Notes: generated from the sequence alone by a model not told the origin. A stretch of 64,000 bases of DNA from Chloroflexota bacterium (GCA_003169735.1 PNAP01000025.1:179-64178); one strand, 5' to 3'. Counted from the first letter of the stretch, positions 26,604 to 31,185 are shown. Program-made: numbers and translations.

Positions 26604-29600
26604 TCAGGGTGCCGCGCTCGGTGTCGCCGAGGGCAGACCCGCGGGCCCGTAGCCCGTGAGCTCGACGTAAGCCTGGCCGCCATCGGGCTGGCCGTCGATG
26701 GTGGCGTGGACGGTCTGCGAGCCTTCCCAGTAGACGACCCCGGTCGTTGGGCGCGTGTCGAGTTCCTGGTCGGCGACTGTCGGCGTGAGGTCGAGGACGA
26801 GCGATTCGATGGGCAGCACGATGTGCCAGCCGGCCGGATAGACGGCCCCCGTCGCGGGCGACGTCCACGAGCCGGTCGAGCTGACGGTGAAGGCGGTCGA
26901 CGGCAGGTGCTCAACGGTCTGGCCACGAATCAGCGTTCCGTACACGAGCGTGTCCGTGCCCGCGGTGTCGCGCACCAACGAGAGGGTCAGGCCCGTGCCG
27001 TCGTCGAGGTTCACCGCGAACCAATCCCAGCCGCCGCCGCCGACGGCGATGAAGTCGCCCCACTGGTGGTCGAACCAGGCCTCGCCGTCGACCGCCAGCG
27101 TCTGGCCACCGACGGTGATGGTGCCGCTCGCCGAGAGCCGCGGCCGCGAGTAGTAGTACGAGCCACCGGCAGCGCCGAAGTCGACGTACCCGTCGGTGTC
27201 CTCGAGCGCGACCGGGACCGTGCCCGCGTCGAGGGCCAGGTCGATGCCGAACGGCGACGCGTCGGCAGCGGTGCCATGCGCATCGAGCTGGTCGTGGCCG
27301 CCGGAGCCGACCATCGTCCACGGCTGCGCGGTGAGCTGCGGGACGCCCGGCAGGCGATCGCCGACGATGCCGAGATCGAAGCCGCTCGCCGCACCCAGGT
27401 CAACCTCGGGGCCGATCTGGGCGCGCTGGTCGTACAGGAATCGGTCGCCGCTCTCGTCGGTCAGCGCGAGATGCGACGCCCACGCGACCGGGAAACTGCC
27501 GCGCTCTGCCCGGAAGACCACGAACTCGAAGCCGAAGTGCTTGCCTGCCGCTGTCTGCAGGTGGCCGGTGTAATACCACCACTCGGTCAATCGATGGTGG
27601 GGCGCGTCATCGGCGGGCAGGACGATCGGTTGTGGGTCGGGTGGCCGAACGGCGCTGGCCGTCGGGGTCGGCAGCGAGGGCACGACGGACGGCTGGTTGG
27701 CCATCAACAGCCCGGACGGAGAGCAGGCACTCACGAGCAGCACCGCGATCAGCCCGAGCACGACCAGCTGGAGGGCCGTCCCCTCGATGACCGGCAGGCG
27801 TGACGCGATGAGGCGCTTCAGGCGCTCCGGCATCCACCAGTTCCAGTGCCCGAGCAGGCGCATCGTCGACGGCACGAGCAGCGCCCGCACGACGGTGGCA
27901 TCCAGGGCCACGGCGATGGCCACGCCAAGACCGACCGCCTTGATGAGCACGATGTCGGCGAACGCGAACGAACCCGCCACCACGACCACGATGAGCGCGG
28001 CGCTGGTGACGATCCGACCGCTGCGCTCCATGCCACTCGCCACTGCAAGGCGATTGTCGCCGGTCCGGTCGTAGACCTCCTTCATGCGCGTCAGGAGGAA
28101 GACCTCGTAGTCCATCGACAGGCCGAACAGGACGCAGAAGAGGATGACGGGCAGCGTCGTCTCGACGAAACCGAGCGGCTCGAAGCCGAGGATCGCCGAC
28201 AGGTTGCCGTCCTGGAAGATCCAGACGAGTGCCCCGAAACTGGCCACGATGGAGAGCGCGTTCATGATCAGCGCCTTGGCCGGCAGGACGACCGAGCGCA
28301 GCAGCACGAACAGAACGAGGTAGGTCGAGATGAGGATGAACGCGGCGCTGCGCGGGAAGTCGGCGCCCATCCGGTCGACGACGTCCTTGACCTCGGCCGC
28401 GCCGCCGCCGACCGCCACGGTCACGCCGGCCGGCGGTGCCAGCGCCGAGTGCGGGTCGCGCAACTCATCGACCAGGGCGCGGCCCTCCGGCGCGTTCGGC
28501 CCGAAGTCCGTGACGACCGAGAACGCCGTCAGGTCGCCGTTGGTGGTCCGTGCAAGCGTGTCAGCCACGAACCGATCAGCCGGGCCGTTGGGCGCGCCGA
28601 GGATGAGCTGGTACTGCGCCTCGTCCAGGCGCGGGTCGATGTCCACGATGCTGTCGACGCGCGCCACGCGCGGATCGGCCGCGATCTCACGCGAGTACGC
28701 GTACAGCCGCGCGATGTTGTCGGGCGACGTCACCGGTCCGTCCGTCTGGACGGCCAGCAGGAGTGGCGCGAACTCGCCGCGCTGGAAGTCGTCGAGCAGC
28801 AGGTCGAACGCCTGGCGCGACGGCACGCTCGGAGGCAGGATCGATTCATCGGGAGCGTCGAAGCGGACGTGCAGGAACGGAACGCCGAGGAGGACGAGCA
28901 CCGCGAGCGTCGCCACGAAGATCCTGACGGGCTGATCCATGACCCGATTGGCGAGGCGCGCCCACGCGCCTTCGCCGGGCACCGCCGGCGTGCGCGGCCC
29001 GCGGCGCAGGCTGGGCACGCGCAGGGCGTCGATGCGCGGTCCGGCCACCGCCAGCACGGCCGGCAGCAGGGTCACCGCTCCAGCGAGCGCGAAGCCGACG
29101 ACGATCGCGCCGGCGATGCCGACCGAGCGCAGGACCATGAACTCGAACAGGATCAGGCCGATCAACCCAAGCAGCACCGTCACGCCGCTGAAGAAGGCCG
29201 CCCGGCCGGCGGTGGCGACGGTGACGCCGATGGCATCCTCGATGACCGCCCGATCGGGCGATCCGTCCGGCAGCCGGCCGCCGCCGCGCCGCGCCAGCTC
29301 CTCGCGGAAGCGGCTCGACAACAGCAGCGAGTAGTCCACGCCGAGGCCGAATCCGAGCAGCGTGGCGATGTTCAGCACGAAGATGCTCATCGGCATGACC
29401 GAGGCGACGAGGAAGATCACGGCGACCGCGATGAGCACCGAGACGCCGCCCACGATGACCGGCACCCCGGCGGCCACGAAACTGCCGAAGACGAGCAGCA
29501 GGGCGAGCGCCGCCAGCGGCAACGAGATCAGCTCGCTGCGCTGCAGATCCTGCTCACTGACGACCTGGACATCGCCGTAGAAGACGGGGCTGCCGGCGAG

Positions 29601-30071
29601 ATAGGTGCTGATCCCCGGGGCGGCATGGATGGCCGCCTGGATGCCGGGCACCGCGTCGGGCGCGTCATCGGGCGACAGGTCGAGCGAGACGACCTCATAG
29701 ACGGTTCGCCCGTCGGCGCTGACCTGGTTGGGAGCGAGACGATGGGTCAGGATGCCCGTCACGTGCGGTGCTGACGGCACGTCCACCAGCGCGGTCGCGA
29801 CGGCCGACTCGAACGCGAGATCACCAGCCTTGGCGTCGGTGTCGGAGCGGACGACGATGGCCAACGCCGACGGCGGCAGGCCGATGGCCGATTCGAGAAG
29901 CTTGCTCGTGCGCGCTGCCTCGAGATCGTCGAGCGAGAAGCCGCCCGATTGGAGGACGCTCGACGCTCGCGGCGCGAGCGGCAACGCGACCAGCGCCAGC
30001 ACCGCCCAGACGGCGATGACCCACCACCGGTGGCGCGCGCACGCCCGGCCAAGTCGCTCGAACGTCGTCAT
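26604..30071 (-). CDS. MMPL family RND-type transporter fused to a C-terminal AttH/CrtC-like (COG5621, lipocalin-type) domain
   Basis: Residues 1-790 form a 12-TM MMPL core with LGFGLGVDYSLLL and LFGLSMDYEVFLLTRMKE motifs. Residues about 795-1155 carry HHRLTEWWYYTGHL...FGFEFVVFRAE...WFDHQWGDF, characteristic of AttH/hydroxyneurosporene-synthase-like beta-barrels. Confidence 0.8.
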   Translation of the reverse strand: MTTFERLGRACARHRWWVIAVWAVLALVALPLAPRASSVLQSGGFSLDDLEAARTSKLLESAIGLPPSALAIVVRSDTDAKAGDLAFESAVATALVDVPSAPHVTGILTHRLAPNQVSADGRTVYEVVSLDLSPDDAPDAVPGIQAAIHAAPGISTYLAGSPVFYGDVQVVSEQDLQRSELISLPLAALALLLVFGSFVAAGVPVIVGGVSVLIAVAVIFLVASVMPMSIFVLNIATLLGFGLGVDYSLLLSSRFREELARRGGGRLPDGSPDRAVIEDAIGVTVATAGRAAFFSGVTVLLGLIGLILFEFMVLRSVGIAGAIVVGFALAGAVTLLPAVLAVAGPRIDALRVPSLRRGPRTPAVPGEGAWARLANRVMDQPVRIFVATLAVLVLLGVPFLHVRFDAPDESILPPSVPSRQAFDLLLDDFQRGEFAPLLLAVQTDGPVTSPDNIARLYAYSREIAADPRVARVDSIVDIDPRLDEAQYQLILGAPNGPADRFVADTLARTTNGDLTAFSVVTDFGPNAPEGRALVDELRDPHSALAPPAGVTVAVGGGAAEVKDVVDRMGADFPRSAAFILISTYLVLFVLLRSVVLPAKALIMNALSIVASFGALVWIFQDGNLSAILGFEPLGFVETTLPVILFCVLFGLSMDYEVFLLTRMKEVYDRTGDNRLAVASGMERSGRIVTSAALIVVVVAGSFAFADIVLIKAVGLGVAIAVALDATVVRALLVPSTMRLLGHWNWWMPERLKRLIASRLPVIEGTALQLVVLGLIAVLLVSACSPSGLLMANQPSVVPSLPTPTASAVRPPDPQPIVLPADDAPHHRLTEWWYYTGHLQTAAGKHFGFEFVVFRAERGSFPVAWASHLALTDESGDRFLYDQRAQIGPEVDLGAASGFDLGIVGDRLPGVPQLTAQPWTMVGSGGHDQLDAHGTAADASPFGIDLALDAGTVPVALEDTDGYVDFGAAGGSYYYSRPRLSASGTITVGGQTLAVDGEAWFDHQWGDFIAVGGGGWDWFAVNLDDGTGLTLSLVRDTAGTDTLVYGTLIRGQTVEHLPSTAFTVSSTGSWTSPATGAVYPAGWHIVLPIESLVLDLTPTVADQELDTRPTTGVVYWEGSQTVHATIDGQPDGGQAYVELTGYGPAGLPSATPSAAP

Positions 30072-30127: not shown

Positions 30128-30550
30128 TCAGACGATCTCGAAGGTGGTCGTGACGGTGGCGACCCCTCGGACGGTCGCGAGCACCGAGCAGTAGCGCTCG
30201 CAGCTCAGCGTCACGGCCCGCTCGACGGCCGCGGGGCGAAGCTCACCACGCACGATGAAGTGGACGGTGATGGCGGTATACGCGTACGGCGCCTCGGTCG
30301 ATTGCTCGCCGGTCACGCGCACCTCCACGCCCTCGACAGGGTGGCGGCCCTTGCCCAGGATCTGGACCACGTCCCAGGCCGCGCACGAGCCGGCCGAGGC
30401 GAGCAGCAGTTCGGCCGGGCTGAAGCCGGTCGGCGGATGGCCCGAATCGGGCGGATGCGGGGCATTGATGGCGATGACCTGGCCCGGGTGCGTCCCGATC
30501 GCGCTGAACCGCTCTTCCTCCGGTTGCCACGCGACCGTCACGGTTCGCAT
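30128..30550 (-). CDS. osmC: OsmC/Ohr family peroxiredoxin-like protein
   Basis: OsmC fold with two conserved Cys (SAGSCAAWDV and LSCERYCSV). The ATG at 30550 with AGGAGGG 7 nt upstream is preferred over the ORF start at 30583. Confidence 0.75.
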   Translation of the reverse strand: MRTVTVAWQPEEERFSAIGTHPGQVIAINAPHPPDSGHPPTGFSPAELLLASAGSCAAWDVVQILGKGRHPVEGVEVRVTGEQSTEAPYAYTAITVHFIVRGELRPAAVERAVTLSCERYCSVLATVRGVATVTTTFEIV

Positions 30551-30644
30551 CAGGCCCTCCTGCTCCTCGCGCTGGCTCGCCACGGCGGGCGACGTTCGCG
30601 GCCACGCCCATCATGCGCCGAGACCGCCGGAGAGGCTCGCGAGG

Positions 30645-30783: not shown

Positions 30784-31185
30784 TCACTCGCCGATGACCG
30801 ACCAGATGAAGCCCATGAAGATGAAGAAGCCGGCGAAAAGTCCCACCAGCGCCGGGGCGCCGACCTTGTTGGCCGGCAGGTCCTGGCTGGCCAGGAACGC
30901 CATGACCGCCATCCACAGGATGAGCAGGACAGCGAAGAAGTAGCGCGAATTGCGCCCTGTCACGAGGTGGACCCACGTCGTCTGCTTGCGCTCCGCGCTC
31001 AGCGCCACGCGCAGGAACACCGTCACCATCAGCCCGGCGATGGCGATCCCCAGGACGAGCGCGATGGGTTGCGCGATGGCCGTCTGGAATCCGCCGTACA
31101 GCGAGACGATCACGACGAACAGCGTCAAGAGAGCGACCAGGGTGCCCAACCGCTGAAGGCGTTCCATCAGGGGGGAGTCTAACAA
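30784..31185 (-). CDS. Small integral membrane protein (4 TM), unknown function
   Basis: Hydrophobic profile only. Lies 4 nt upstream of flp on the same strand. Confidence 0.45.
   Translation of the reverse strand: MLDSPLMERLQRLGTLVALLTLFVVIVSLYGGFQTAIAQPIALVLGIAIAGLMVTVFLRVALSAERKQTTWVHLVTGRNSRYFFAVLLILWMAVMAFLASQDLPANKVGAPALVGLFAGFFIFMGFIWSVIGE

Follow-up and report, generated by a model that had tools for sequence, protein, structure and literature searches.

A predicted MmpL3-like exporter fused to an AttH/CrtC-type double barrel through a lipoprotein-type junction in a Chloroflexota bacterium

Several mycobacterial exporters have a partner, either a lipoprotein that binds lipids or a small protein of the periplasm, that takes the lipid over outside the membrane, as in LprG-Rv1410c, MmpL7-LppX, MmpL3-LpqN, and MmpS4/5-MmpL4/5. 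A tighter arrangement is found in OpuA and GlnPQ of Lactococcus, in which a substrate-binding lipoprotein is fused to an ATP-binding cassette (ABC) permease. Here, we describe a gene in a stretch of 64,000 nucleotides from a soil Chloroflexota bacterium (GCA_003169735.1 PNAP01000025.1:179-64178), hereafter called the window, which is predicted to encode an MMPL exporter and an AttH/CrtC-type double beta-barrel in one protein. An MMPL exporter with a lipoprotein partner is a known kind of system, and the fused AttH form is a variant on it. As in the mycobacterial pairs, an exporter is combined with an external partner, but the partner folds there are unrelated to AttH and the genes are separate, whereas AttH is fused here. 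As in OpuA and GlnPQ, the transporter has taken up its extracytoplasmic lipoprotein partner as a domain, by way of a former signal sequence that crosses the membrane. However, those proteins belong to another transporter class with another direction of transport, and they are not known to have kept a functional lipobox, whereas the lipobox is strictly kept here. Proteins of this architecture can be found in public databases, where they bear generic names such as 'MMPL family transporter' or, as the label given to them by JGI, 'putative drug exporter'. No published study of the MMPL-AttH pair or of its fusion turned up in the literature searched.

Within the AttH/CrtC family, CrtC hydrates carotenoids (PMC3145076, PMC4717167), the AttH-like hydroxy-glycerol dialkyl glycerol tetraether (hydroxy-GDGT) synthase Hgs hydrates archaeal tetraether lipids (bioRxiv 10.1101/2025.10.20.683597), and kievitone hydratase is a further member (PMC5805349; bioRxiv 10.1101/2025.10.20.683597). 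These three proteins have the PF07143 family assignment in common with the barrel described here, in which the H-x-W motif of CrtC is also present, and they add water to isoprenoid C=C bonds without a cofactor (PMC4717167, PMC5805349, bioRxiv 10.1101/2025.10.20.683597). Unlike this barrel, they are neither fused nor coupled to a pump. For NE1406 of Nitrosomonas europaea, a role in the metabolism of lipids or isoprenoids was proposed in the structural paper, which also drew attention to transporters in the neighbourhood (PMC2954199).

Architecture of the fused gene

An open reading frame (ORF) of 1155 codons fills 26604..30071 of the minus strand without interruption (Table 1). Its GC contents at the third and second codon positions (GC3 0.91, GC2 0.49) are typical of a genuine gene, the GC content of the window being 69%. 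The plus-strand reading of 26604-30071 is rich in stops and was rejected. Pfam matches to MMPL (PF03176; two stretches, 275.6 bits against a cut-off of 20.5, E 6.4e-82), CrtC (PF07143; residues 829-1005, E 5.6e-34), and Lipocalin_9 (PF17186; residues 1013-1141, E 1.4e-31) all scored well over the curated cut-offs. An AlphaFold model was built on 30 homologues, with a mean predicted local distance difference test (pLDDT) score of 75.6 and a predicted TM-score (pTM) of 0.69. It contained, in this order, 12 membrane helices with two alpha/beta extracytoplasmic domains, a helix at residues 749-758, a 13th helix at 764-782, disorder from about 783 to 821, and the barrels at 829-1139. In both sequence and model, the predicted product is thus an MMPL pump fused to an AttH/CrtC-type double barrel in one protein, an architecture that we regard as established. 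An earlier note on this stretch had named no strand for the gene and had read it as a canonical MMPL core of 12 transmembrane (TM) helices and about 790 residues, followed by an AttH/CrtC-like domain. The canonical core was borne out, and the motifs quoted for the second domain (TEWWYYTGHL, FGFEFVVFRAERG, and AWFDHQWGDF) are all present in the translation, as are the two profile matches that it had proposed to look for in the C-terminal region. The end of the core, however, lies near residue 745 and not 790, and residues 746-783 consist of a cytoplasmic segment and the 13th helix with its lipobox.

The N-terminal part resembled mycobacterial MmpL proteins. A phmmer search of the PDB matched MmpL3 of M. 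tuberculosis (7NVH, E 8.7e-81), and Foldseek matched structures of MmpL3, MmpL4, and MmpL5 with E values down to 1.7e-30 and TM-scores of ~0.8 on the target. The MmpL3 structures matched by Foldseek were 6AJF, 7N6B, and 7NVH, at 28-30% identity. With MmpL3, the trehalose monomycolate exporter of Mycobacterium, the pump has in common the 12 TM helices, the two extracytoplasmic domains, and the Asp-Tyr pairs of TM4 and TM10. The residues D246, Y247, D654, and Y655 aligned with the DY pairs of MmpL3 and were invariant among 30 homologues. Because all four relay residues match MmpL3 and are invariant, the pump looks functional and is likely to be proton-driven. MmpL3 carries a cytoplasmic C-terminal domain, whereas in the fused protein its place is taken by the 13th helix, the lipobox, and the external AttH domain. 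The nearest NCBIfam model for the N-terminal part was MmpL3 (NF052608), at 328.6 bits against an equivalog cut-off of 1400, and by its sequence the fused pump is MmpL3-like but not an MmpL3 orthologue. The Chloroflexota are not a phylum known to make mycolic acids. The same genome also holds a second MMPL paralogue outside the window (G000:C31:97025-99262) that is 30% identical to the fused pump, and relatives hold an MMPL paralogue family at ~42% identity.

The C-terminal part matched NE1406 (structure 2ICH) by sequence (phmmer E 4.3e-37 over 326 residues, 30% identity) and by fold (Foldseek E 4e-20, TM-score 0.84, root-mean-square deviation 3.5). Two flattened lipocalin-like barrels and the motifs EWWY.TG, SYYYS, GWDW, DQEL, YWEG, and YxELTGY are common to both proteins. 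NE1406, however, stands alone in the genome context of a LolD/MacB-type ABC transporter (PMC2954199) and has the motif D-R-E-W, whereas the fused protein has an MMPL partner and the motif D-H-Q-W. In the 30-sequence alignment, the invariant barrel residues were E830, W831, W832, H837, R854, H867, Y972-974, D1001, H1002, W1004, W1015, D1016, W1017, E1103, E1116, and E1137. The invariant H1002-Q-W1004 has the spacing of the catalytic His239 and Trp241 of R. gelatinosus CrtC, in which Tyr266 and Asp268 are also catalytic (PMC4717167). This set of invariant residues, with its acidic, His, Tyr, and Trp side chains, suggests an active site more than a passive lipid pocket. Chloroflexota proteins with Pfam CrtC matches at E ~1e-60 were considered as true CrtC references and rejected, being NE1406-like lipoproteins with a D-R/H-E-W motif. 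Other domain combinations were also seen in the family. In P0136, an N-terminal AttH barrel without a signal peptide is joined to a UbiA-type prenyltransferase, a fusion that keeps prenylated lipids in view as a substrate; in P0174, a Peripla_BP_6 binding protein is joined to AttH.

Split and fused forms of the MMPL-AttH pair

We scanned 80 species-level loci from GTDB genomes and the P0122 locus (L017), 81 in total, with hidden Markov models built from our own alignments. In 60 loci, MMPL and AttH are separate genes in this order, and in 15 they are fused; the other 6 were undetermined, and 5 of these lie at contig ends. Among the 57 split pairs with a scorable junction, the MMPL stop and the AttH start overlap by 4 nt in 52, and the AttH protein has a lipobox in 56. 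The closest stand-alone relative, P0122, has 64% identity and is a lipoprotein precursor; its ATG and the stop of the upstream MMPL gene overlap as ATGA. The split pair was also found in Thermomicrobiales, in Ktedonosporobacter rubrisoli, and in a Rubrobacter metagenome-assembled genome (MAG). In a Thermomicrobiales MAG (L089), the signal peptide of the split AttH protein is without a lipobox (MTMTRRTAAARLLAGL...), and this protein would be soluble and secreted. Typical Limnocylindria-type MMPL-AttH genes were also present on the L040 contig, labelled Patescibacteria group bacterium, and in P0082, labelled Bathyarchaeia archaeon; both are probably mis-binned.

The coupling to a pump was followed beyond these loci. 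In other Chloroflexota families, an MMPL gene lies directly upstream in 14 of the 20 AttH loci sampled. Five AttH loci of this sample without an upstream MMPL gene (L107, L108, L109, L114, and L115) belong to another sequence class, with D-R/H-E-W instead of D-H-Q-W. The members of this class are AttH lipoproteins with very strong CrtC scores and are closer to NE1406 than the MMPL-coupled class is. In the family to which the window's genome belongs, two genera without AttH (g5 and g3) are also without an orthologous MMPL (best match 42% in G151, none in G088). A CrtC-family domain was found in 236 of 401 sampled Chloroflexota genomes. A HMMER search with the barrel only, against representatives of 50%-identity clusters, gave 5059 relatives at E <= 0.001, in which the whole fused clade counts as one representative. 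Among the 150 matches listed, nearly all others stand alone and have 350-450 residues, and a lipoprotein signal peptide was seen at the start of most of those inspected. AttH had been described in the earlier note as normally a stand-alone secreted protein; it is indeed stand-alone, and more precisely a stand-alone lipoprotein. The distant stand-alone homologues P0235 and P0173 have no transporter neighbour, or lie on contigs too short to tell, and the coupling to a pump therefore does not extend to the whole AttH family.

The fused frame recurs in >100 sequences from JGI, ENA, NCBI, and Logan, all with the three-domain architecture. Fusion had at one stage seemed universal, because the first homologue search admitted only proteins of 0.55-1.75 times the whole-protein length. 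The unfiltered search and the locus survey show that split pairs dominate, and fusion as the universal form was rejected. A 1197-aa open frame around AttH in L104 was likewise rejected as a fusion, since it has no second domain and is an open frame in GC-rich DNA. The survey of fused versus adjacent genes that the earlier note had called for thus returned both forms, adjacent coupled genes being the commoner and apparently the ancestral one. Fused and coupled loci together give strong comparative support to a direct functional partnership of pump and AttH. The note's idea of a direct hand-off of an exported lipid receives this support as a partnership, from which we infer the hand-off itself.

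A maximum-likelihood tree was calculated from 60 concatenated pump and barrel sequences with the junction omitted. Eight loci with frameshifts or broken pieces were left out, as were loci with too short a pump or barrel, for example at contig ends. The deep branches of the tree are all split, and well-supported branches force at least three changes between the fused and split forms. The approximately unbiased test rejected a single fused clade (log-likelihood difference 313, p 2.6e-5). The fused groups differ in their junctions, of which at least four or five sequences can be told apart. The gene in the window has a long junction that keeps RLPVIEG, and a short type, RLRRILPP, is nested in the same clade; RRVPRIE is found in a second clade, and there are singletons such as L054 and L027. 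The fused forms are without the acidic pump tail (SEAEVEAA-R) and without the MxRRR start of the lipoprotein. From the tree alone, gains and losses of fusion are inseparable. It is simpler to suppose that fusion was gained repeatedly, by loss of the stop codon in the overlap, because throughout the phylum the overlap of 4 nt is conserved, and because neither the SEAEVEAA-R tail nor the MxRRR start is left in the fused forms. On these sequences, the translationally coupled gene pair is common and apparently ancestral and the fusion derived, and we regard both the ancestral pair and repeated fusion as established. In five loci outside the tree (L037, L047, L080, L088, and L103), the pump or the barrel is spread over two frames, L103 being a fused-type gene with a frameshift; assembly indels or pseudogenes are the likely cause.

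The junction between pump and barrel

The MmpL3 alignment obtained by phmmer stops at NWWMPERLKRL, which corresponds to the cytoplasmic exit of TM12 in the solved structures of MmpL3. Because the alignment ends at this exit and one further crossing follows, the barrels are predicted to be extracytoplasmic. RLKRLIASR lies on the inner side of the 13th helix, and helix 764-782 makes the crossing. By homology and in the model, the AttH domain is thus located outside the cytoplasm, a topology that we take as established on this basis and that agrees with the check proposed in the earlier note.

The junction consists of a positive n-region, RLKRLIASR, followed by LQLVVLGLIAVLLVSAC783, and fits the lipobox [LVI][ASTVI][GAS]C. 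In alignment, it corresponds to the signal peptides at the N-termini of the split AttH lipoproteins. Judged from this alignment, the junction is the AttH lipoprotein's own retained signal peptide, which stands at the N-terminus only in the split relatives and is internal here, after 12 TM helices. The earlier note was right that the fusion is real but had missed this signal peptide. Among 30 fused homologues, C783 was invariant, always in the form L/V-x-A/G-C followed by S or T, and was preceded by a basic RLRR or RLKR and then by an uncharged stretch. A canonical lipobox ([LVI..]-x-[GAS]-C) was present in 120/120 fused homologues retrieved, in 28 tetrapeptide variants, and its retention can be regarded as established. 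The linker behind the lipobox is poorly conserved except for a short ILANP motif, and the spacing from Cys to EWWY is 44-58 residues in all fused homologues. In fused copies, the uncharged run before Cys has 7-26 residues (median 17) and is signal-peptide-like, with <=14 residues, in ~43% of them; its median is 14 in the split AttH partners. This pattern suggests that the lipobox is under selection in the fused copies. Because it is kept in every fused copy, Cys783 is probably still lipid-modified by Lgt. The genome encodes one lspA (PF01252, E 8.6e-34) and two lgt genes (PF01790, E 2.7e-50 and 8.2e-27), and a crude scan gave ~56 candidates for N-terminal lipoprotein precursors in which the lipobox is of the same style.

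Genomic context, proposed mechanism, and alternatives

The features of the gene and its neighbours are collected in Table 1. The OsmC-like gene directly upstream on the same strand, mentioned in the earlier note, was confirmed (E 1.8e-17), but the Flp pilin gene that the note had placed beside it is doubtful. The Flp-like ORF scored 24.3 bits against a Pfam cut-off of 32.2, and it has no counterpart in two relatives, where the genes for the four-TM protein and OsmC lie 46 and 37 nt apart. A lysine-2,3-aminomutase-like radical SAM gene is divergent from the OsmC and four-TM genes, and two relatives on megabase contigs (L018 and L019) have the same order of radical SAM gene, four-TM gene, OsmC gene, and fused pump. 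A homologue of the four-TM gene adjoins the MMPL gene in most Limnocylindria loci, co-directionally in the window's clade and divergently in most others. Within the window's clade, most loci have the OsmC gene between the four-TM gene and the pump; outside it, one locus (L065) does. OsmC may link the module to the handling of oxidised lipids or stress. A partnership with a separate MmpS protein, which the earlier note had regarded as usual for MMPL transporters, holds only for pumps of the MmpL4/5 type and not for this MmpL3-like pump. No MmpS match was found among the ten neighbouring gene products, and none is listed beside the two relatives. A scan for promoters and terminators around the fused gene gave none above shuffled expectation.

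Table 1. Features of the fused gene and of the genes upstream of it
Feature	Position in window	Strand	Basis
Fused gene, 1155 codons and stop, ATG at 30071	26604..30071	minus	ORF list, translation; N-terminus aligns from M1 with 29 homologues
MMPL (RND) core, residues 1-745, 12 TM helices and two extracytoplasmic domains	27837..30071	minus	Pfam, phmmer, Foldseek, AlphaFold
TM4 Asp246-Tyr247, half of proton-relay pair	29331..29336	minus	GLGVDYSLLLSSRFREE vs MmpL3 GLGIAIDYGLFIVSRFREE
TM10 Asp654-Tyr655, other half of proton-relay pair	28107..28112	minus	FGLSMDYEVFLLTRM vs MmpL3 FGLSTDYEVFLVSRM
Cytoplasmic tail after TM12, residues 746-763, WMPERLKRLIASRLPVIEGT; positive n-region before 13th helix	27783..27836	minus	End of MmpL3 alignment, model helix 749-758
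13th hydrophobic helix and lipobox, residues 764-783, ALQLVVLGLIAVLLVSAC; Cys783 is the lipidation-type cysteine	27723..27782	minus	Model helix 764-782, homologue alignments
Pro/Ser/Thr-rich disordered tether, residues 784-821	27609..27722	minus	pLDDT <50 at 782-798 and 802-808
AttH first barrel (CrtC N-terminal lipocalin domain), residues 829-1005, ending WFDHQWG	27057..27587	minus	PF07143, 2ICH sequence and fold, high pLDDT
AttH second barrel (Lipocalin_9), residues 1013-1141	26649..27035	minus	PF17186, covered by 2ICH alignment
OsmC-like gene, 56 nt upstream of fused gene, Cys motifs SAGSCAAWD and LSCERYCS kept	30128..30583	minus	PF02566, E 1.8e-17
Flp-like ORF, 44 codons	30645..30779	minus	24.3 bits vs Pfam cut-off 32.2
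Small four-TM membrane protein gene	30784..31185	minus	No Pfam match; neighbour conserved in Limnocylindria

The whole is best explained, in a reading that we consider fairly probable, by one gene that makes two partners usually made from coupled genes, with export, hand-off, modification at the barrel, and a signal peptide at the junction. By analogy with MmpL3, the N-terminal 745 residues would act as a proton-driven exporter that moves a hydrophobic molecule from the cytoplasmic membrane to its outer side. The signal-peptide junction would carry the barrel across the membrane, with the positive charges given by the cytoplasmic tail of the pump, followed by the hydrophobic core and LVSAC783. 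The C-terminal ~330 residues would form a double beta-barrel outside the membrane, on a flexible tether of ~40 residues, and receive the exported molecule. The barrel probably modifies this molecule chemically, as is proposed because the known activities of the family are the addition of water to isoprenoid double bonds. Once Cys783 is modified, LspA may cut the chain into the pump and a free lipoprotein. The gene would then encode a natural polyprotein: after insertion of the pump, Lgt would recognise the internal signal peptide, LspA would cut, and a diacylated AttH lipoprotein would be released 1:1 beside the pump. We put this last step forward tentatively and lean slightly against it. Internal processing, if real, would explain the survival of the lipobox through at least three independent fusions.

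Several observations weigh against this explanation. Tyr-x-Asp, the second catalytic motif of CrtC, was not located in the barrel by an alignment that contained no authentic CrtC. No biosynthetic genes were consistently linked to the pair, and its neighbours vary by clade. Phytoene/squalene synthase (SQS_PSY, PF00494) had no match in this genome, which is 92.65% complete, and was matched in 8 of 14 control genomes. Because no such synthase was found, carotenoids are probably absent from this genome, and a carotenoid or hopanoid substrate was rejected for it. As for the junction, the literature searched held no description of a natural internal lipobox or lipoprotein signal peptide, only papers on viral polyproteins, and the extra helix may be no more than a permanent anchor.

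The last point can be developed into an alternative with the same architecture and partnership, in which the junction is only a permanent signal-anchor without cleavage and the cysteine is lipidated on the uncut chain or kept for, e.g., packing at the membrane interface. In over half of the fused copies, the uncharged run is 17-26 residues long, which suffices for a stable helix. Stoichiometry is fixed at 1:1, and proximity gained, only if the parts remain joined, and fusions of ABC permeases with substrate-binding lipoproteins by way of a signal-anchor helix are known from OpuA and GlnPQ. However, a lipobox without a role should decay, and yet it is canonical in every copy retrieved, across its 28 variants and at least three independent fusions. 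The h-regions of 7-14 uncharged residues in ~43% of copies, which often start from Pro-Pro, are also short for a permanent TM helix. An uncleaved anchor is accordingly possible in our judgement, with the expectation tilted against it. Next to no credence is given to the view that the fusion is itself an artefact, in which two real genes with a 4-nt overlap were run together by a frameshift in sequencing or assembly. Gain or loss of one base at an ATGA or TGATG overlap would join the frames, and obvious frameshifts do occur in some related MAG loci (L037, L047, L080, and L088). But the fused frame was recovered in >100 sequences from independent sources and is common to a whole clade of species, and its junctions are remodelled, with loss of the SEAEVEAA tail and the MxRRR start, rather than shifted by one base.

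Other alternatives concern what is exported. The pump might expel prenylated or terpenoid soil toxins, with the external barrel hydrating them against re-entry, in the manner of fungal kievitone hydratase acting on a plant phytoalexin. Membership of kievitone hydratase in the same family (PMC5805349; bioRxiv 10.1101/2025.10.20.683597) is in line with such a function, as are the position of OsmC, from a family of stress and organic-hydroperoxide detoxification, directly upstream in the window's clade, the failure to find an endogenous carotenoid or squalene pathway in the genome, and the JGI name. We nevertheless regard detoxification as unlikely, since the pump is nearest to MmpL3, a dedicated envelope-lipid exporter, and not to multidrug RND pumps, the pair is conserved phylum-wide as a tight housekeeping-like module, and the linkage to OsmC is limited to one clade and one other locus. 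Very improbable is a carotenoid module, in which carotenoids would be exported to the cell surface by the pump and the barrel would be a genuine carotenoid 1,2-hydratase of the CrtC type. The Pfam CrtC match and the presence of H-x-W (PMC4717167) would fit it, and an MMPL-family gene lies in the carotenoid operon of Corynebacterium glutamicum (PMC5401885). It is opposed by the lack of an SQS_PSY match in a search that was positive in eight control genomes, and by the barrel sequence, which is closest to AttH NE1406. The domain is, moreover, predicted to be extracytoplasmic and derived from a lipoprotein, whereas CrtC acts within carotenoid biosynthesis.

MmpL3 is a major tuberculosis drug target, and a natural covalent fusion of pump and partner is convenient for structural work on lipid transfer to outside partners. 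Internal processing at the lipobox, if true, would widen the substrate range of Lgt and LspA and be the first case in which signal peptidase II is described as cutting an internal substrate. The AttH-like family is large, and activities are known for few of its members. Taken together, the fused and split forms offer strong comparative evidence for a large branch of AttH that is dedicated to an MmpL3-like exporter and acts as its partner outside the membrane. The pair is thereby an entry point to the function of AttH and to the envelope lipids exported by the largely uncultured soil Chloroflexota of the Limnocylindria.

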